Assembly: GCA_002419365.1 (NCBI GenBank)
Contig: DIGA01000067.1
Coordinates: 4,586-68,585 of the forward strand
Length of the DNA: 64,000 nucleotides
Source: Mageeibacillus sp. UBA5734
Lineage (GTDB): Bacteria > Bacillota > Clostridia > Saccharofermentanales > UBA5734
Direction of reading: 5' to 3'
Shown here: in pieces, positions 1,311-52,672 of the stretch
Position numbering within the stretch: the stretch's first letter is position 1
Layout of the letters: each line of letters starts with the position of its first letter
Translations under genes and position numbers: made by a program
The notes under the pieces: model-generated
Database searches by the model: none
Told to the model about the DNA's origin: nothing
The model's input: the letters and a program-made list of their open reading frames with translations, nothing else

Positions 1311-1385
1311 AGGGGAGTGGCTCAACGGTAGAGCAGCGGTCTCCAAAACCGCGGGTTGCGTGTTCGAATCGCGTCTCCCCTGCCA
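1311..1385 (+). tRNA. tRNA-Trp (anticodon CCA), encoded CCA end
   Basis: Hand-folded cloverleaf. Acceptor AGGGGAG/CTCCCCT, D arm GCTC..GAGC, anticodon stem GCGGT/ACCGC with loop CTCCAAA, T loop TTCGAAT, discriminator G followed by CCA. Confidence 0.9.
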
Positions 1386-13138: not shown

Positions 13139-13216
13139 TGGTCGGAGTGACCTGACTCGAACAGGCGACCTCTTGCACCCCAAGCAAGCACTCTAGCCAA
13201 ACTGAGCTACACCCCG
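13139..13216 (-). tRNA. tRNA-Pro (anticodon GGG), encoded CCA
   Basis: Hand-folded cloverleaf. Acceptor CGGGGTG/CACTCCG, anticodon stem CTTGC/GCAAG with loop TTGGGGT (G37), T loop TTCGAGT. Confidence 0.88.
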
Positions 13217-17444: not shown

Positions 17445-17804
17445 GGTGACTTCCTGAGCAAGCCTGTAAGCCGGGTTCTGTCGTGGACAACCATCTATCC
17501 AGGCCGATCATTTCTGAACGGCTCCAGCCACCTCCCCGGGACGTGCGGGCCACACAATGTCCCTCCACGGTGTTGCTCCAGGTGGGGTTTACAGAGCCAG
17601 CCTGTCGCCAGGCTGCTGGTGAGCTCTTACCTCACCTTTCCATCCTTGCCGGCCAGGGCCGGCGGTCTATTTCTGTTGCACTGTCCTTGAAGTCGCCTTC
17701 ACCGGGAATTACCCGGCACCCTTGCCCTGTGGAGCCCGGACTTTCCTCACGCGCGGCCTTTCGGCACTGCGCCCGCGGTTGTCCAGCTTGCTCAGAAAGT
17801 CACC
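17445..17804 (-). ncRNA. rnpB: RNase P RNA, bacterial type A
   Basis: The minus strand contains GAGGAAAGTCCGGGCTCCACAGGGCA (CR-I) and ACAGAACCCGGCTTA (CR-V). The P1 ends pair (GGTGACTTTCTGAGCAAGC with GCTTGCTCAGGAAGTCACC). End coordinates are approximate, within about 10 nt. Confidence 0.9.
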
Positions 17805-19413: not shown

Positions 19414-20481
19414 TCAGTCCAGATAGTCCTTGAGCTTTTTGCTCCGGCTGGGGTGGCGCATTTTACGCAAGGCTTTGGCCTCAATCTGGCGGATGCGTTC
19501 GCGCGTGACGTTGAATTCCTTGCCAACCTCTTCCAGAGTCCGGGTCCGGCCATCATCGAGACCGAAACGCAGGCGCAGGACCTTTTCTTCCCTCGGCGTC
19601 AGGCCCTTCAAGACTTCGAGCAGCTGTTCTTTGAGCAGGGTGAAAGCCGCCTGGTCGGCTGGTGATGGCGCATCGTCGTCGGGGATGAAATCACCCAGAT
19701 GGCTGTCCTCTTCTTCGCCGATCGGTTTTTCCAGGGATACCGGTTCCTGGGAAATCTTCATGATCTCACGCACTTTCTCCACCGTCATGCCCATTTCCTG
19801 GGCCAGTTCCTCAGCCTCGGGCTCACGGCCGAGCTCCTGGATCAGCTGGCGCTGGATACGGATCAGCTTGTTGATCGTCTCCACCATATGCACCGGAATG
19901 CGGATCGTGCGGGCCTGGTCGGCGATGGCACGGGTGATGGCCTGGCGGATCCACCAGGTGGCATAAGTGCTGAACTTGAAGCCTTTTTCATAATCGAACT
20001 TATCGACTGCCTTGATCAGGCCCAGGTTACCTTCCTGGATCAGATCGAGAAACTGCATGCCGCGGCCGACGTAACGCTTGGCAATGCTGACAACGAGGCG
20101 CAAGTTAGCGTTGCACAGGCGTTCCTTGGCATCCATGTCACCTTCCAGCATGGCCTGGGCCAGTTCTTTTTCTTCATCGGCCGTCAGCAGGGGCACCTTG
20201 CCGATTTCCTTGAGGTACATGCGGACTGGATCATCAACCCCAACACCCTCGATCGTGCTGATATCAAGGTCATTGTCCGACGCGGTGTCATCTTCGACGA
20301 CGGTGTCGGCAACGACTTCGACACCCATGGCTTCGAGACGGTCGAGGACCTTCTCGGCCTGGTCCAGATCAATGTCTGATGATTCGATCGCGCTCATGAC
20401 ATCCTTGTAGGAAATCTGGTTGTTCGAGGCGTGGGCTTTGTTGAGTAGCTCTGTGAGCAATCCTTGCTTTTTCTCTGCCAT
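19414..20481 (-). CDS. rpoD: Primary RNA polymerase sigma factor
   Basis: 355 aa with region 2 ([27 protein letters not shown]) and region 4.2 ([27 protein letters not shown]). Confidence 0.96.
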
Positions 20482-20571
20482 GGTTGTGTGAGTCCTCCAA
20501 TAATTCTAAATAAATTGATCTGCTAGTGAATGATGGGTTTAGGTCTGTCTGGACTGGAAAATCCGGTGGTT

Positions 20572-22434
20572 TCAGCGTGTGCGCAGTTTCTGGATCTGCT
20601 GGTTGATGTCAAGAAGCTTTTTCCTGGCTTCGGCTGCTTCCGCCGGCTGATCTGGATCCTGGGCCAGGGCAGCCGTTTCCCTGAGCTGGCGGCGCAAGTT
20701 TTCCAGACGAATCGTGCGTACCAGTTCATGGATGGTCTTCAGGGGGTCCTGGCCAGCAAAGGTCTCATCCAGCTTCATGCTGGCTTTGGCCAGCAGATCG
20801 GTCAACAGCCGGCCGTGCACGACGAGGGCCTCCGACCAGAGCATCAGGCCACCACTGTCCACAGGCTTTCCGGAGTCCAGGTACTCAAGCAGCCGGCTGG
20901 CTACTGCCTGCATCACCCCGGCTGAGAAATCTGCTGCGACAGGCTTAGGCTCCAGACGTGTCCAGAGCGTGGGATGCTCGGCCAGAAAGCACAGCAAGTA
21001 GATCTCCTCGCGGGTGGCTTGCTGGCCAGAGGGCTGGGCCAGATCAGCAACCGGTGCAGCGTCTGGCTTTTTGCGGGCTGCCAGCTGCTGGTGCAACAAA
21101 TCTCCGGCCAGACTGGCTTCGCTACCTTCGCGGCGCCGTTCAATCTCGCGTACGACACTGTCGGCCGAAGCATGGAGCCATTCACTGACCTTGCCAGCGT
21201 ACAATTCCCGCACAATGGCATTGTCTTCCCTGGCCAGGATCGAGCATGCCTGGTCCTGGAATGCAAGGACATCGAGCTCGCCATGCACTGCGCAGGAACG
21301 GCGGGCCACATCGAGCTTGAAATCCAGAAGCGGCAATGCCTGGTCGACCAGGACCTTGAAACGTTCCGGACCGTGTTTGCGGATGAATTCATCCGGATCT
21401 TTGCCGTCTGGCACCCGCAGAACTGTAACTTTAAGCCCACGTGATGTCAGGATGTCCAGGCTGCGCAAAGCGGCGTTCTGGCCCGCTGCGTCGGCATCAA
21501 AACCGACAATCACCTGGTCGGTATACTTGCGGATCAGGTTGGCCTGGGCTTCGGTCATCGCTGTGCCGAGGGCAGCCACGGCATTGTCGATTCCAGCCTG
21601 GTGCATAGCCAGGGCATCCATGTAGCCTTCGACCAGGACCAGGCGCTTGTCGCTGCTGGACTTGGCCAGGTTCAGGCCATAGAGGTGGCGGCCTTTGGTA
21701 TAGAGCGGCGTCTCGGGCGAGTTCAGGTATTTGGGCTGCGAATCGTCAAGGACGCGCCCGCCAAAAGCGATGATCTTGCCCATAACGTCAAAGATCGGGA
21801 ACATCAGGCGGTTACGGAACAAGTCATAGTAGCCATCCGACTTGCCACGCTTGAACAGGCCGGACTGGCTGATCAACTGGGGATCATCGAGGCCCTGCCG
21901 GCGCAGATGCATCAGCAGGCCGTCCCATTCGTCGGGTGCAAAACCAAGGCCGAATTTCCGGGCGGTGCTGTCAGCGATGGCGCGGTCCTTCAGGTAGCGG
22001 CGAGCGACAGCGCCGGCAGGACTTTGCAGACTGTGATAATAGAAGCGGGCTGCCTCCAGGTAGATTTTCTGCAGAGTGGCGTTACGTTCGAGGCGTTCGC
22101 GATAGGCTGCGTCATCGGGTTCCGGCAGCTGAATCCCTACACGGTCGGCCAGGATTTTCAAGGCCTGGGGCCAGGTGCATTTTTCAATCTCGCGGATGAA
22201 TGTGATGACATTGCCGCCCTTGTGGCAGCCAAAGCAGTAAAAAATCTGCTTGCTGGGCGATACACTGAAAGAAGGTGTGTCCTCATTGTGAAAGGGACAC
22301 AGCCCGAACAGATTGGCACTGCTGCGCTTGTCAAGACGGACGTACTGCCCGACGACCGAGACAATATCGTTTCTGGACTTGACTTCTTCAACCAGTTCAT
22401 CTGGAATGGTGCGGTTTATACCAGAATTGCTCAC
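20572..22434 (-). CDS. dnaG: DNA primase
   Basis: 620 aa with a zinc ribbon (CPFHNEDTPSFSVSPSKQIFYCFGCHKGG) and a TOPRIM motif (LVEGYMDA). The GTG start overlaps the upstream stop (GTGA). Confidence 0.95.
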   Translation of the reverse strand: MSNSGINRTIPDELVEEVKSRNDIVSVVGQYVRLDKRSSANLFGLCPFHNEDTPSFSVSPSKQIFYCFGCHKGGNVITFIREIEKCTWPQALKILADRVGIQLPEPDDAAYRERLERNATLQKIYLEAARFYYHSLQSPAGAVARRYLKDRAIADSTARKFGLGFAPDEWDGLLMHLRRQGLDDPQLISQSGLFKRGKSDGYYDLFRNRLMFPIFDVMGKIIAFGGRVLDDSQPKYLNSPETPLYTKGRHLYGLNLAKSSSDKRLVLVEGYMDALAMHQAGIDNAVAALGTAMTEAQANLIRKYTDQVIVGFDADAAGQNAALRSLDILTSRGLKVTVLRVPDGKDPDEFIRKHGPERFKVLVDQALPLLDFKLDVARRSCAVHGELDVLAFQDQACSILAREDNAIVRELYAGKVSEWLHASADSVVREIERRREGSEASLAGDLLHQQLAARKKPDAAPVADLAQPSGQQATREEIYLLCFLAEHPTLWTRLEPKPVAADFSAGVMQAVASRLLEYLDSGKPVDSGGLMLWSEALVVHGRLLTDLLAKASMKLDETFAGQDPLKTIHELVRTIRLENLRRQLRETAALAQDPDQPAEAAEARKKLLDINQQIQKLRTR

Positions 22435-22997
22435 AGTCTATTATTCGACACGTCTGGTTCGTTTTCCTGCCCGGACTCTTCGTTTTTTTGTTCACTGGAC
22501 TGGTAGTGCGCCTGATGTTGCAAGTGGTGATGAACCGTCTGGCGGTTTTGCTCGATCCGGCCGGGATCGAGCCTTTTCCAGAAGGTTGCCGGAATGCCGG
22601 CGTACAGAGTCCTCGCTTCGACGATGGTACCCCCGGCTACCAGGGCACCGGCAGCGACCATGGCTCCGCGCTGGATGACAGCACCATCCAGGACGACAGC
22701 ACTCATGCCGACCAGGGCGTCGTCTTCAATGGTGCAGCCGTGCAGGATCACCCCGTGGCCGATGCTCACCCGGTCGCCGATCACCACTTTGTCATGGACG
22801 ACTGTCTGGTCCTGGATATTGCTCTGGGCTCCGATCACGATTGGCTGGACATCGCCACGCAAGATGGCGCCATACCAGATCGAACTCTGTGGACCGATGG
22901 TCACATCGCCGATCAGGGTGGCTGTTTCCGCAATGAAAGCAGATGGATCCACCAGCGGTTTCTTGCCCTGGTAGGCACGAATCAAAGGCTTATGCAT
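22431..22997 (-). CDS. Gamma-carbonic-anhydrase-like / hexapeptide-repeat protein (YrdA/PaaY family)
   Basis: 188 aa with left-handed beta-helix hexapeptide repeats (IGDVTIGPQSSIWYGAILRGD..) and a short polar C-terminal tail. Confidence 0.8.
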   Translation of the reverse strand: MHKPLIRAYQGKKPLVDPSAFIAETATLIGDVTIGPQSSIWYGAILRGDVQPIVIGAQSNIQDQTVVHDKVVIGDRVSIGHGVILHGCTIEDDALVGMSAVVLDGAVIQRGAMVAAGALVAGGTIVEARTLYAGIPATFWKRLDPGRIEQNRQTVHHHLQHQAHYQSSEQKNEESGQENEPDVSNNRL

Positions 22998-23037
22998 GGC
23001 AGCTCTCCTTTAAGGAATCGATGAACGGTTGAACTGT

Positions 23038-24390
23038 TCAGGTCTTTAGCCAGAGGGCGCATTCGAGACGCTTTTTCTGCAGCTGGCAGCTGATCGGATC
23101 TACCCCATTGACATGGCCATTGACATGCAGGCTGTTGGCTGCACAACCGCCGCTGCAGAAGTACTTGGCCCAGCACTGGCTGCATTCGGCTTTGTCCGGA
23201 ACCAGCAGCGAGTAAAATGGTAGCTGGACTACAGGATCGATCTGGACTGGTTGATTGTGAACATTGCCCATGCGGTATTCAGGTTCGCCGACAAACTGAT
23301 GGCAGGGATAGATGTCACCTTCCGGGGTCACAGCGATGTATTCAATCCCGACACCGCAGCCCTTGATCCGCTTGAAGGCACACGGGCCATGGGACAGGTC
23401 GAGCATGAAATGGAAAAAATTGAACGGCTCGCCTTTGGCTTTGGCCTGGCGGATCTCCATCGCCAGCTTCTCGTATTCGGCTTCGATGGCCGGCAGGTCT
23501 TCCGGCCGGATTTCGTAACCCACCCCTGCCGGGGCCACAACAGGTTCCATCGACAGCTGCTTGCCCAAGGACGCCAGATGCAGGACGTCCCCGGTGAAAT
23601 CGAGGTTGTGGCGGGTAAATGTACCACGCAGATAATAGTCCCTGTCGCCGCGCATTGCGATGAAATCCTTGAAATGCGGGGCGATGCGCTGATAGGAGCC
23701 TTTGCCACCCGCATCCGGCCTCATCCGGTCATGGACATCGGGGCGGCCATCCAGGCTGAGGACAACATTTTTGAAATGCTGGTTGATGAACCGGGATTTT
23801 TCCTCATCGAGCAGGACACCGTTCGTGGTCATGGTCAGACGCAGGATCTTGCCGGTTTCTGCCCCCCTTTTCTCGCAATAGTCGACCAGATCGACTACGA
23901 CAGGCCAGTTCAGGAGCGGTTCACCGCCAAAAAAATCGATGTCAAGGTTTCTGCGCGGGCCGGATGCCTCGATCAGAAAATCGATCGCTTTGTAGCCGGT
24001 TTCTGCATCCAGCATGGTGCGGTGGCCGGTACCGAAATCTCCGGTACTGGCAAAACAATACTCACAGCGCAGATTGCAGTCGTGGCAAATATGCAGACAC
24101 ATGGATTTGATGCGGGGCTGATCGGGATACAGCTGGTCCGGGGTGATGGATTTGGCTGCAGCAAACAAATCACCCCGGGCGATCAGTTCGTCGATGTCGT
24201 TGCAGCATTCCCGGACATCCGGGCCCAGACTGGCCTCGAGCTGTTGGATCTCGGTCTCTCCGGGGTGCTGTCCCTCATGCTCGATGTAGGACTCGATGAC
24301 AGCAGCGGAAAGGGCATCCAGCTTGTGCAGGGCGCCGCTTTCCGAATCGAAGGCGAGGGTGTCATTCTGGAATTTGAAAAGATGGACCAA
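23038..24390 (-). CDS. scfB: Radical SAM/SPASM thioether-forming SCIFF peptide maturase
   Basis: 450 aa with a CxxxCxxC cluster (CNLRCEYC) and C-terminal SPASM cysteines (CGVG..PCHQF; CSQCWAKYFCSGGCAAN). The TTG start at 24390 lies 6 nt after SD AAGGAG. It is directly downstream of the SCIFF precursor. Confidence 0.88.
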   Translation of the reverse strand: MVHLFKFQNDTLAFDSESGALHKLDALSAAVIESYIEHEGQHPGETEIQQLEASLGPDVRECCNDIDELIARGDLFAAAKSITPDQLYPDQPRIKSMCLHICHDCNLRCEYCFASTGDFGTGHRTMLDAETGYKAIDFLIEASGPRRNLDIDFFGGEPLLNWPVVVDLVDYCEKRGAETGKILRLTMTTNGVLLDEEKSRFINQHFKNVVLSLDGRPDVHDRMRPDAGGKGSYQRIAPHFKDFIAMRGDRDYYLRGTFTRHNLDFTGDVLHLASLGKQLSMEPVVAPAGVGYEIRPEDLPAIEAEYEKLAMEIRQAKAKGEPFNFFHFMLDLSHGPCAFKRIKGCGVGIEYIAVTPEGDIYPCHQFVGEPEYRMGNVHNQPVQIDPVVQLPFYSLLVPDKAECSQCWAKYFCSGGCAANSLHVNGHVNGVDPISCQLQKKRLECALWLKT

Positions 24391-24410
24391 GAGGATCTCC
24401 TTTGTACAAT

Positions 24411-24448
24411 GAAAAAGATAGTGGAAAGCCAGCGGCTATCCACTATCT
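24411..24448 (-). terminator. Hairpin plus U-tract between scfA and scfB (attenuator or partial terminator)
   Basis: On the minus strand AGATAGTGG (24448-24440) pairs with CCACTATCT (24424-24416). The loop contains an inner AGCC/GGCT stem. TTTTT follows. Confidence 0.55.
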
Positions 24449-24528
24449 CGCTGATTCAAATCAGACGGCAGGCAATAGGAACTCGGGAGCCGGGCAGATA
24501 TCCTGACAGCTGGCCAGGGTAGCTTTGC

Positions 24529-24675
24529 TCAGCGCTCGAAGGATTCGCAAGCCTGGTTGGCAACGGTGCAGCTCGTCTTGCAGGCGGACTGGCAAGATGT
24601 CTGGCATTCACCGCAGGCACTCTGGCCAGCAGAGACATGGATACAAGCTTCACTGATGGTCTGGATGTGTTTCAT
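24529..24675 (-). CDS. scfA: SCIFF ranthipeptide precursor (six cysteines in forty-five residues family), 48 aa
   Basis: Own codon-by-codon translation gives MKHIQTISEACIHVSAGQSACGECQTSCQSACKTSCTVANQACESFER*. It contains the hallmark CGECQTSCQSACKTSCTV core. SD AGGGGA lies upstream. It is not in the ORF track because it is under 60 aa; the listed 24456..24653 ORF is in the wrong frame. Confidence 0.9.
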   Translation of the reverse strand: MKHIQTISEACIHVSAGQSACGECQTSCQSACKTSCTVANQACESFER

Positions 24676-24731
24676 ACGTTGATTTCCCCTTCCTATATGA
24701 TCAAACGATATCGGATGTTGCGATCAAATGA

Positions 24732-25052
24732 TTATTCACTGACTGGCTTGATGACCGTGCTGACGGAAGCTTTCTTGAACGTGATCAGTGTATTGGCAAC
24801 GCTGGTCGAGATGGTGACTTCATCATCCTTGAGGTTGACGACCTTGCCGACAATACCACCAGCAGTGACCACTTTGTCACCGACGGCCATGGCATTGATC
24901 TGCTCACGCAGTTTCTTCTCCTTGGTCCGCTGGGGACGGATCAAAAGCAGGTACATCAGGCCAAACATCAAAACCAGTGGCAGCAAGGTGCCCAGCATGC
25001 CTGTCCAGCTGCCGGCGGCCGCATCGGTCATCGCGAATTTCACTAAATTCAT
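24732..25052 (-). CDS. yajC: Preprotein translocase subunit YajC
   Basis: ..LLPLVLMFGLMYLLLIRPQRTKEKKLREQINAMAVGDKVVTAGGIVGKV.. The ATG at 25052 is preceded by SD GGAGGAG. The ORF-track start is a TTG inside that SD. Confidence 0.9.
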   Translation of the reverse strand: MNLVKFAMTDAAAGSWTGMLGTLLPLVLMFGLMYLLLIRPQRTKEKKLREQINAMAVGDKVVTAGGIVGKVVNLKDDEVTISTSVANTLITFKKASVSTVIKPVSE

Positions 25053-25148
25053 GGTTATCTCCTCCAAAATCTGTCAAGGTCCAGCCAAATGGCCGGATTC
25101 CTGATGAGCTAAAACAGTTTAGCACGAGCGTTCGCTGCTGCGCAAGGA

Positions 25149-27390
<2,242 letters not shown>

Positions 27391-27411
27391 AGCTTGGCAT
27401 TATAGCGAGAA

Positions 27412-27441
27412 TTGACGGTAAAGTATAGCCGATGGTATCAT
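27412..27441 (+). promoter_or_regulatory. Candidate sigma-70 promoter for dapA-dapB
   Basis: TTGACG (27412-27417), 18 nt spacer, TATCAT (27436-27441). Confidence 0.4.
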
Positions 27442-27541
27442 GACACAAGGCTTTCCAGCCTTGGCCCATTGTTTGCCGCAGCATTTTTGCAAGAATACCA
27501 TCTGCTTCTTTCAAAATAAATCCTTCCTGGAGGACCACCTT

Positions 27542-28420
27542 ATGAAAAAGCCCTTGTTCCAAGGATCTGGTGTCGCCATTGTCACACCGTTTACCGAATC
27601 GGGTGTCCATTTTGATGCCATGTCTGAACTGTGTGAATTCCACATCCAGCATGGAACCGACGCCATCGTCGTCGCAGGTACCACCGGTGAAGCATCCACC
27701 ATGCCAGACGAAGAACATCTGGCGATCATCGCCCATGTGGTCCAGACTGTGCGCGGACGTGTCCCGGTCATCGCCGGCACCGGCAGCAATGATACCCATC
27801 ATGCCGTCGAACTCAGCCGCAAGGCCGCTGCCCTGGGCGTCGATGGCCTGCTGTGTGTGTCACCCTACTATAACAAAGCTTCCCAGGAAGGCCTGTATCG
27901 CCATTTCAAGGCCGTGGCCGAGGCAGTTGACTGCCCGATCATCCTGTATAACGTTCCCAGTCGCACCGGTATGAACATCAACCCGGAAACAGTCGCCCGC
28001 CTGGCAGAGTTGCCCAATGTCAACGGCCTTAAGGAATGCAAGCTGGAGCAAGTTCCAGAGATTGCCAGCCTGTGTGGTGACAAGATCAACCTTTACAGCG
28101 GCGAGGACACATTCGTCCTGCCGATGATGTCCTACGGTGGCAAGGGCGTTATCTCTGTTGTTGCCAACATTGTCCCCCAGCTGTGCCATGACATGGTCGC
28201 AGCCTATCTGTCCGGTGATGCCCCGGAAGCAACCCGGATCCAGACTCACCTGATCCCGCTGATCAAAGCCATGTTCTGTGATGTCAATCCCATCCCGGTC
28301 AAGCATGCCCTGTCGTTGATGGGCTACGCTGTGGGTGAATGCCGCATGCCTCTCTGCGAACCGAGTCCGGCAGCTTCTGCCATCATTCGCCAGGCCCTGG
28401 CTGACTACCAGCTGATCTGA
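27542..28420 (+). CDS. dapA: 4-hydroxy-tetrahydrodipicolinate synthase
   Basis: GSGVAIVTPFTESG...VVAGTTGEASTM...YNVPSRTG. The ATG at 27542 follows SD GGAGGA. The ORF-track start at 27440 is an extension. Confidence 0.93.
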   Translation: MKKPLFQGSGVAIVTPFTESGVHFDAMSELCEFHIQHGTDAIVVAGTTGEASTMPDEEHLAIIAHVVQTVRGRVPVIAGTGSNDTHHAVELSRKAAALGVDGLLCVSPYYNKASQEGLYRHFKAVAEAVDCPIILYNVPSRTGMNINPETVARLAELPNVNGLKECKLEQVPEIASLCGDKINLYSGEDTFVLPMMSYGGKGVISVVANIVPQLCHDMVAAYLSGDAPEATRIQTHLIPLIKAMFCDVNPIPVKHALSLMGYAVGECRMPLCEPSPAASAIIRQALADYQLI

Positions 28421-28476
28421 ACAGGCACAGCAACATTGGTGTCTTCACCGAAACCCTGCTAATTGAGGAGTCTATC

Positions 28477-29232
28477 ATGGCAATCCGTGTTTTTCTGAAC
28501 GGCTGCAACGGCCGCATGGGGCAAGTCATTTCCGGCCTGGCCAAAGAGAGCCAGGACCTGGAGATCGTCGCTGGCAGTGATCTGAACCAGTCGGTAACCC
28601 AGTCCTTCCCTGTTTTTGCCCAGGCCCAGGACTGCACGGTCGATTTCGATGTCATCATCGATTTTTCCAACCCAGCCGCCTTGCCGAACCTGTTTGAACT
28701 GATCCGCCGCACCCAAAAGCCGGCTGTGATCTGCACCACCGGACTGGAAGAATCCCAGAAAAAAGAGCTTGATGGACTGGCCCAGGCAAGTGCCATCTTT
28801 GTCTCAGCCAACATGTCACTGGGTGTCAACATCCTGATCAGCCTGGCCCAGAAGGCAGCAGCCATCCTCTACCCGGATTTCGACATCGAAATCATCGAAG
28901 CTCATCACCGTCAGAAAGTCGATGCACCCTCAGGCACTGCCCTGATGATTGCCGACGCAATCAACGAGACACTCGACAACCAGCTTGAATATACCTACGA
29001 TCGCTCCCAAGTCCGGCAGAAACGCGGTGACCGGGAGCTGGGCCTGCATGCCATCCGCGGCGGCACCATCGTCGGCGAGCACACAGTGCTTTTTGCCGGG
29101 GGCGAAGAAACCATCAGCATCCACCACAGCGCCCAGTCGCGCAATGTCTTTGCCCGTGGCGCCCTGGCTGCTGCCAGATTTTTAGCTGGTAAACCAGCTG
29201 GCCGGTACGAAATGAAAGACCTGATCGGCTAA
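28477..29232 (+). CDS. dapB: 4-hydroxy-tetrahydrodipicolinate reductase
   Basis: 251 aa: VFLNGCNGRMGQ...EAHHRQKVDAPSGTA... Confidence 0.92.
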   Translation: MAIRVFLNGCNGRMGQVISGLAKESQDLEIVAGSDLNQSVTQSFPVFAQAQDCTVDFDVIIDFSNPAALPNLFELIRRTQKPAVICTTGLEESQKKELDGLAQASAIFVSANMSLGVNILISLAQKAAAILYPDFDIEIIEAHHRQKVDAPSGTALMIADAINETLDNQLEYTYDRSQVRQKRGDRELGLHAIRGGTIVGEHTVLFAGGEETISIHHSAQSRNVFARGALAAARFLAGKPAGRYEMKDLIG

Positions 29233-29259: not shown

Positions 29260-29299
29260 CGAGGGGCTGATTCTAACAGAATCTGCCCCTCGTTATTTT
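29260..29299 (+). terminator. Intrinsic terminator after dapB (stem also usable from the convergent gene)
   Basis: CGAGGGGCTGATTCT-AAC-AGAATCTGCCCCTCG (15-bp stem with 1 mismatch), followed by TTATTTT. Confidence 0.65.
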
Positions 29300-52597: not shown

Positions 52598-52672
52598 TGG
52601 AGCCGCTGGTGGGAATCGGACCCACGACCTATTCATTACGAGTGAATTGCTCTACCCCTGAGCCACAGCGGC
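52598..52672 (-). tRNA. tRNA-Thr (anticodon CGT), encoded CCA
   Basis: Hand-folded cloverleaf. Acceptor GCCGCTG/CAGCGGC, D arm GCTC..GAGC, anticodon stem ATTCA/TGAAT with loop CTCGTAA, T arm GTGGG/CCCAC. Confidence 0.88.

Follow-up and report, generated by a model that had tools for sequence, protein, structure and literature searches.

A canonical SCIFF ranthipeptide locus with a terminator-like hairpin between the precursor and maturase genes in a lineage of uncultured Clostridia

The scfA and scfB genes were analyzed in a window of 64,000 nucleotides (nt) from Mageeibacillus sp. UBA5734 (contig DIGA01000067.1, positions 4,586 to 68,585 of the forward strand; all positions below are those of the window unless a relative's locus is named). 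The scfA gene encodes a SCIFF ranthipeptide precursor, and scfB encodes its radical-SAM/SPASM maturase. Both genes lie on the same strand with a 138-nt spacer between them, the precursor gene directly 5' of the TIGR03974 maturase gene, and the spacer contains a stem-loop of the intrinsic-terminator type. Translation of positions 24675-24529 on the minus strand gave the 48-codon product MKHIQTISEACIHVSAGQSACGECQTSCQSACKTSCTVANQACESFER, exactly the frame and peptide proposed in the initial annotation, which had been made from the letters of the sequence alone.

The initial annotation suggested a search with the SCIFF precursor and maturase models, and all three scores exceeded their cut-offs. 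ScfA scored 68.3 bits with TIGR03973 (cut-off 50; model positions 1-43 of 43 matched) and 69.8 bits with PF13165 (cut-off 27; full model length covered), and ScfB scored 552.9 bits with TIGR03974 (cut-off 425). The ScfA leader comprises residues 1-20, and the core begins at Cys21. The core, CGECQTSCQSACKTSCTV..NQ.CE, contains all six family cysteines (positions 21, 24, 28, 32, 36, and 43) and agrees at every position with the consensus drawn from 128 distinct homologues. A seventh cysteine is located in the leader at position 11, and the proposed count of seven was confirmed from the translation. As read from the sequence, ScfA retains the thioether donor Cys32 and both candidate acceptors, Thr34 and Thr37.

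The scfA gene had been described as missing from the list of open reading frames (ORFs). This is true at the default minimum length of 60 aa, and scfA was listed when the threshold was lowered; its absence thus reflects the length threshold and not biology. A metagenome gene call of an identical contig (L081) also skipped scfA, and NCBI annotates the gene in relatives. The exact ScfA and ScfB sequences are already present in public collections. Members of their 90%-identity clusters, from metagenome-assembled genomes (MAGs) of uncultured Clostridia/Eubacteriales, carry the NCBI names "six-cysteine ranthipeptide SCIFF" and "thioether cross-link-forming SCIFF peptide maturase". A cluster-mate of the RpoD protein carries the label Saccharofermentanales. 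The 64-kb window contains no further SCIFF-like peptide and no paralogue of ScfB.

The maturase was also confirmed as described, a 450-aa CxxxCxxC/SPASM protein read from a TTG, which is the earliest possible start codon in its frame. ScfB consists of an N-terminal RRE (approximately residues 1-88), a radical-SAM core, and a SPASM domain (approximately residues 331-450). Its radical-SAM motif, C105-x3-C109-x2-C112, reads CNLRCEYC at nt 24078-24055. Residues 1-449 aligned with CteB (PDB 5WGG) at E = 2.7e-140, and the presence of the RRE is indicated by CteB and model alignments that begin at residues 1-2. The Fe-S ligands listed for CteB are C104/C108/C111 for the radical-SAM cluster, C344/C362/C413 for the first auxiliary cluster (AC1), and C400/C403/C409/C432 for the second (AC2) (PMC10177961). 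Read across the alignment, these correspond in ScfB to C105/C109/C112, C345/C363/C416, and C403/C406/C412/C435, respectively. All ten cysteine ligands are kept, three for the radical-SAM cluster and seven in the SPASM domain for two auxiliary 4Fe-4S clusters, with an open site on AC1. The homologous thioether-forming radical-SAM/SPASM enzymes PapB, which acts on PapA in freyrasin formation, and QhpD gave 240 and 209 bits on ScfB, under their family cut-offs, and PapA's repeated CxxxD motifs are missing from ScfA.

Public scfB calls in the close relatives L164-L173 range from 450 to 482 aa, and some extend 5' through the terminator. A TTG or GTG start matching CteB Met1 is the consistent scfB start across these relatives. 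A 423-aa ORF on the opposite strand (23251-24522, plus) and an overlapping 86-aa ORF had no Pfam match and were set aside as shadow ORFs. The 423-aa frame is most likely a shadow of GC-rich coding DNA.

Table 1. Features of the scfA-scfB locus and neighbouring genes (window positions)
Feature	Position	Strand	Remarks
scfA, 48-aa SCIFF ranthipeptide precursor	24529..24675 (including stop codon)	minus	ATG start; TIGR03973 and PF13165
scfA Shine-Dalgarno-like AGGAAGGGGA	24685..24694	minus	5' of scfA ATG; purine-rich GGAGG-like motif at the same place in relatives
Intrinsic-terminator-type stem-loop	24415..24449	minus	11 bp, U.U mismatch, 4 bp, 3-nt loop
U5 tract	24412..24416	minus	after the stem, partly overlapping it
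scfB Shine-Dalgarno AAAGGAG	24397..24403	minus	6 nt 5' of TTG
scfB, SCIFF maturase, radical-SAM/SPASM, 450 aa	23038..24390	minus	TTG start; TIGR03974
Hexapeptide-repeat gene, gamma-carbonic-anhydrase-like	22431..22997	minus	NF050158 158.9 bits, under cut-off 250; Hexapep Pfam match
dnaG	20572..22434	minus	4-nt overlap with hexapeptide gene
yajC	24732..25067	minus	56-nt gap to scfA; TIGR00739 78.1 bits, PF02699 92.8 bits
tgt (queuine tRNA-ribosyltransferase)	25149..26408	minus	PF01702 560.9 bits, match from residue 61
queA	26326..27390	minus	PF02547 473.5 bits; first gene of apparent queA-tgt-yajC-scfA unit

The pair was compared with the two characterized systems, CteA-CteB of Clostridium thermocellum (thermocellin, PDB 5WGG) and Tte1186a-Tte1186 of Caldanaerobacter subterraneus. 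All three share the core CGECQTSCQSACKTSCTV with six core cysteines, Thr34 and Thr37, a 20-residue leader opening with MKHI, a precursor gene immediately 5' of the maturase gene, and a maturase alignable over its full length with the RRE, the CxxxCxxC motif, and seven SPASM cysteines. Reviews describe, for Tte1186 and CteB, a thioether from Cys32 to Thr at a non-alpha carbon, and they report the chemistry as known for CteA and Tte1186a only. A chance or decayed origin of the 48-codon ORF, with scfB as an orphan maturase, has practically negligible probability. Some gene callers do skip the ORF, and NCBI keeps a model for ScfB-related orphan maturases (NF040492, the "not_ScfB" exception model). 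However, ScfB scored 428.6 bits with that model, far under its cut-off of 855, and the core of ScfA is the family consensus. The chance origin was refuted by the scores of both precursor models together with the conservation of leader residues Cys11, Ile12, and Ala20 through synonymous changes. The scfA-scfB genes are a genuine, canonical SCIFF pair and an ordinary, already annotated member of a well-known family.

The hairpin between the two genes begins 79 nt past the scfA stop codon and ends 24 nt short of the scfB start. In the initial annotation it was set about 100 nt past the stop codon, as a 9-bp stem with an inner stem followed by U5 at 24448-24411. The hairpin and the U5 tract are real, and the distance and dimensions required correction: the outer stem has 11 bp, with two extra pairs reaching the U-run, the inner stem has 4 bp, and the limits are those of Table 1. 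The folding free energy of the hairpin was -22.3 kcal/mol compared with -8.6 +/- 2.3 kcal/mol in a set of 200 dinucleotide shuffles, none of which folded as stably (z = -5.9). The entire scfA-scfB spacer was less striking (z = -2.1). A consensus terminator scanner did not report the scfA-scfB hairpin because of its internal mismatch. Therefore, we wrote our own scan for a single hairpin ending no more than 2 nt from a T-rich tail, with dinucleotide shuffles as the control. The two strands of the 64-kb window together gave 105 such candidates, of which this hairpin ranked approximately tenth. Its form resembles the clean terminators that follow dapB and two of the tRNA genes. The dapB terminator (29260-29292, plus) had a free energy of -22.8 kcal/mol and lies 28 nt past the dapB stop codon. 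Such a strong and clean example indicates that the organism uses canonical intrinsic terminators.

A terminator/antiterminator switch was considered and ruled out. Blocking the 3' arm cost 15 kcal/mol, the 5' arm had no convincing other partner, no competing fold was present, and the upstream 79 nt are conserved only in the closest relative. Rfam scans (permissive over 20000-29000; at the gathering threshold over the whole window) placed no known family in the scfA-scfB spacer, and the sole nearby match was a sub-threshold snoRNA inside tgt. Because neither a competing fold nor an Rfam family was found, the hairpin was read as constitutive and not regulated.

The closest ScfA match in 185,579 species genomes had 73% identity, and a search of 5.8 billion proteins, in which the SCIFF hits make up about 5,800 clusters, gave closer relatives at 96%, 90%, and 79-83% identity, whose contigs were obtained by exact-protein look-up. 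These close relatives share the leader pattern MKHIxTI-xx-[AV]-C-[IV]...x-A-CGEC. Every contig of the lineage has the gene order of the window, with dapA(-) followed by queA-tgt-yajC-scfA-scfB-(hexapeptide gene)-dnaG. ScfB of the lineage is 60-91% identical to that of the window, compared with at most 51% for ScfB paired with Gly-Gly-type (GG-type) leaders. The RRE is the most divergent part, with 39-88% identity inside the lineage and approximately 23% to GG-type ScfB, to which the core is approximately 53% identical. ScfB of the lineage forms a clade of its own, and the atypical leader marks this lineage of uncultured Clostridia. Annotated pairs from MAGs of uncultured Clostridia/Eubacteriales (e.g., NCA99035.1/NCA99036.1 and MDD2456896.1/MDD2456897.1) share the 90% clusters, leader type, synteny, and hairpin sequence of the window. 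They differ from it in one or two peptide residues (96% identity to P0001) and, in locus L164, in the distance from hairpin to scfB, which is 82 nt and thus 58 nt longer.

The stem ATAGTGGAAAGCC/GGCTTTTCACTAT was kept in eight distinct lineage members, with loops of 3-6 nt, and the other spacer sequence could not be aligned. Across these eight members, 96% of the cells in the stem were paired, compared with 45-55% when the partners were slid. Compensatory changes, with both sides altered, were found at three stem pairs, and G.U pairs were tolerated. The variable loop length and the tolerated G.U pairs favour an RNA structure over a protein operator. The inverted repeat ATAGTGGA-AGCC/GGCT-TCCACTAT might also be read as a DNA operator through which a dimeric regulator controls scfB, and the unusual conservation of the stem sequence, where ScfB is only 61-66% identical to that of the window and the flanks are unalignable, would suit such a site. 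However, the half-site spacing varies with the loops, the changes compensate RNA pairing, the hairpins found at this site in other SCIFF lineages are unrelated in sequence, and a regulator gene is absent nearby. We consider an operator very improbable.

In the same lineage, a GGAG-type motif (AAGGAG, GGAGG, or GGGAGG) lies 5' of the scfB start in all nine distinct spacers. The TTG start of scfB was found in 12 of the 13 lineage loci listed and in eight of the nine distinct spacers. One lineage member (L165/L166, 3148-3421) has another, longer hairpin, GAAAACCTCGTACGAT...ATCGTACGAGGTTTT, in a spacer of 274 nt. This shows that the element was turned over and its position was kept.

The presence of the hairpin was then compared across the SCIFF family in 80 loci taken from the species-representative genomes, from which 73 GTDB scfA-scfB spacers were scanned. 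A hairpin of -12 kcal/mol or lower with a T-tail was found in 89% of the genome spacers and in 4% of 140 dinucleotide-preserving shuffles of them. The median free energies were -15.1 and -3.4 kcal/mol, respectively. A metagenome scan for close relatives gave only generic SCIFF loci, at no more than 71% identity among the matches listed. These loci were reused as an independent replication set, in which 75% of 59 distinct spacers among the matches listed carried such a hairpin. The family hairpin usually starts approximately 22 nt past the scfA stop codon and lies at a median of 44 nt from scfB, within 60 nt in 69%. This short distance leaves insufficient room for a promoter and a 5' untranslated region. 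Thus, a hairpin with a T-tail is a common feature of SCIFF loci and not peculiar to the window. Its presence and not its sequence is conserved family-wide, as the sequences differ between lineages. In the open-access literature searched, SCIFF was nowhere paired with a terminator or with yajC.

The initial annotation had embedded the pair in queA-tgt-yajC. The pair actually lies 3' of that unit, before the gamma-carbonic-anhydrase-like hexapeptide gene, dnaG, and rpoD. At least 60 of 135 loci in the family have yajC on the same strand no more than 1.2 kb 5' of scfA, a lower bound because tblastn was run with a short query. In 62 of 149 SCIFF loci (e.g., L001:5510-5932 and L013:5485-5895), yajC and scfA are separated by a TIGR04086 membrane-protein gene. 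It is absent from this position in the window (24676-24731) and in the lineage, and no homologue was found in the 64-kb window. The yajC-scfA gap of the lineage is 30-94 nt long, with only a ribosome-binding site conserved, and the 56-nt gap of the window contains no terminator and no conserved promoter. Given this short gap with only the ribosome-binding site conserved, we infer that scfA is co-transcribed with yajC, which is the simplest reading.

On the other side, the hexapeptide gene follows scfB after 40 nt without a terminator and overlaps dnaG, and rpoD is next. A hexapeptide gene follows scfB in seven of 80 unrelated SCIFF loci. Because this gene, without a terminator, recurs after scfB, scfB may head a unit running into the dnaG-rpoD operon. 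In an alternative reading, the hairpin is an efficient, complete terminator of queA-tgt-yajC-scfA, and scfB, the hexapeptide gene, dnaG, and rpoD are transcribed from their own promoter. The hairpin equals the end-of-operon terminators of the window in strength. dnaG and rpoD are essential genes and must have promoters somewhere, and a promoter would fit in L164 and L165, with at least 82 nt from hairpin to scfB. However, the window offers only the 24 nt up to the start codon, 7 of which belong to the ribosome-binding site, and the consensus scan gave no promoter-like match on the minus strand; the dependence of scfB on read-through is argued from this geometry only. Furthermore, a promoter 5' of the hairpin would still need read-through, and the short median distance in the family speaks against a separate promoter generally. 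A separate promoter behind a complete terminator is quite improbable for the window.

Taken with the family data, a partial terminator is the reading that we prefer. The locus is likely a canonical ranthipeptide locus in which the queA-tgt-yajC unit ends with scfA as its final cistron and enzyme transcripts are held below those of the precursor by a leaky terminator that is not regulated. ScfA would be made from the 3'-terminal part of the queA-tgt-yajC-scfA message. The majority of polymerases would halt at the hairpin and U5, acting as a constitutive leaky intrinsic terminator, and the hairpin would also give the scfA mRNA a protective 3' end. The read-through minority would supply scfB, and the conserved weak TTG start would further limit the enzyme. 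With scfB 24 nt past the hairpin, started at TTG and reached by read-through only, the ScfA substrate would outnumber the ScfB enzyme. The RRE of ScfB would then dock the leader, a core cysteine would bind the open iron of AC1, and 5'-deoxyadenosyl radical chemistry would join Cys32 to a carbon in the side chain of a Thr, a mechanism carried over from Tte1186 and CteB. The attenuator of the initial annotation, said to set a high ratio of precursor to enzyme, is backed by comparison. The terminator-like hairpin in most SCIFF loci, the compensatory changes in its own lineage, and an scfB too near for a separate promoter agree with it, and partial read-through is presumed.

Several points weigh against this reading. 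Termination efficiency and read-through are predicted from sequence for this uncultured organism. The U-tract has five residues only, and its first two are paired with the stem base. The 274-nt spacer of L165/L166 and the 82 nt after the hairpin in L164 make separate scfB promoters possible in some relatives, and the consensus promoter scan gave only weak candidates for a promoter of the upstream unit. Furthermore, reviews report a single cross-link as demonstrated in any true SCIFF, with the acceptor disputed between Thr34 and Thr37.

The stem-loop might instead act mainly on RNA stability or processing, shielding the scfA mRNA against 3' exonucleases once an endonuclease has cut a polycistronic transcript. 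This fits every comparative result: the structure was selected and the loop sequence was not, and the outcome would be the same, with more precursor mRNA than enzyme mRNA. However, the T-rich tail, needless for a pure stability hairpin, is part of the criterion that split genome spacers from shuffles (89% versus 4%). The two roles can coexist. A mainly stabilizing role is unlikely, with some real chance of being correct.

Leaky termination after a precursor gene is a recognised design in clusters for peptides that are made by the ribosome and modified post-translationally, where such "attenuators" are described for lantibiotics, microcins, and bottromycin (PMC7113386). The window shares with them a stable hairpin and U-run between precursor and enzyme genes and the presumed excess of substrate mRNA over enzyme mRNA. 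It differs in that its precursor gene is apparently the last in a housekeeping unit and not the first of a dedicated regulated operon. An adjacent regulator, protease, or exporter gene is also lacking, and termination in the window is predicted.

The leader of ScfA was atypical. Compared with CteA and Tte1186a, it has Cys11-Ile12 in place of the usual ATL/ANL and Ser19-Ala20 immediately before Cys21 in place of Gly-Gly; the "SAG" reported earlier at this site was a misreading. Its net charge is 0, which ties the lowest of the 128 peptides (median +4). The RRE, as given above, is also far from the GG-type, and the TIGR04086 gene is missing from between yajC and scfA. Gly-Gly precedes Cys21 in 89% of the 128 distinct peptides (160 loci) and is typical but not defining, and a leader cysteine occurs in 13%; this sample is biased, its members having been chosen in order of their similarity to the query, and it overstates the frequencies of Cys11 and of leaders without Gly-Gly. 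No charge compensation for the neutral leader was seen in the RRE, which is equally acidic (approximately -12) in both leader types. The "xA" dipeptide is common to the whole lineage, which still passes the SCIFF models, and some leaders of the GG type (L007, L045, and L064) carry Cys11 as well. Thus, the leader is atypical as claimed in Cys11 and the missing Gly-Gly, and also in its neutral charge, but it is not unique, and the lineage is already annotated as SCIFF at NCBI.

Within the lineage, the codons for Cys11 (TGT/TGC), Ile12, and Ala20 have changed synonymously and the amino acids are kept, and residues 8-10 and 13-19 vary. This pattern suggests that the three residues are under selection. 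Because Cys11 is kept amid variable residues, it could serve as a seventh donor, forming an additional cross-link, as a ligand of the AC1 open iron during leader docking, or as a disulfide partner. The loss of Gly-Gly would imply that the leader is removed differently or not at all, in keeping with a role inside the cell that is tied to the yajC operon. That the lineage is a functionally distinct SCIFF variant, defined by Cys11-Ile12, "xA", a near-neutral leader, a diverged RRE, and no TIGR04086 neighbour, is a tentative idea that we regard as rather unlikely.

The role of SCIFF had been called still unknown. This was too strong, as a 2020 study on solventogenic clostridia, cited in two papers (PMC8326336, PMC8102284), ties SCIFF to quorum sensing and sporulation genes. 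For the window, the result is the correct annotation of a small gene missed by length thresholds and some callers, which has little weight alone. The modest additions are the family-wide terminator, with 132 spacers examined, and the leader variant. A hairpin near scfB, together with an scfA that often follows yajC directly or past one TIGR04086 gene, suggests that expression is constitutive and housekeeping-linked and that an excess of substrate is built in. The hairpin offers a handle for altering the peptide-to-enzyme ratio. Furthermore, a natural leader without Gly-Gly or basic charge and with a conserved extra cysteine is ready test material for the leader features that ScfB reads.

The starts of two upstream genes were also revised. 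The yajC gene probably begins with the ATG at 25052, giving 106 aa, which is also its length in the identical contig L081. The mechanical tgt ORF has 419 aa and overlaps queA by 83 nt, and the gene has 395 aa in the L081 call and in relatives. Because the Pfam match begins at residue 61 and the relatives' calls have 395 aa, the true tgt start is probably Met25 at nt 26336, leaving an 11-nt overlap with queA. A class A RNase P RNA (17451-17794, minus; 286 bits) lies a few kb 3' of rpoD. The tRNA genes of the window are at 1311-1382 (plus), 13142-13216 (minus), and 52601-52672 (minus), and two of them are followed by clean hairpin-plus-T-tract terminators at 1391-1431 (bidirectional) and 13130-13101.

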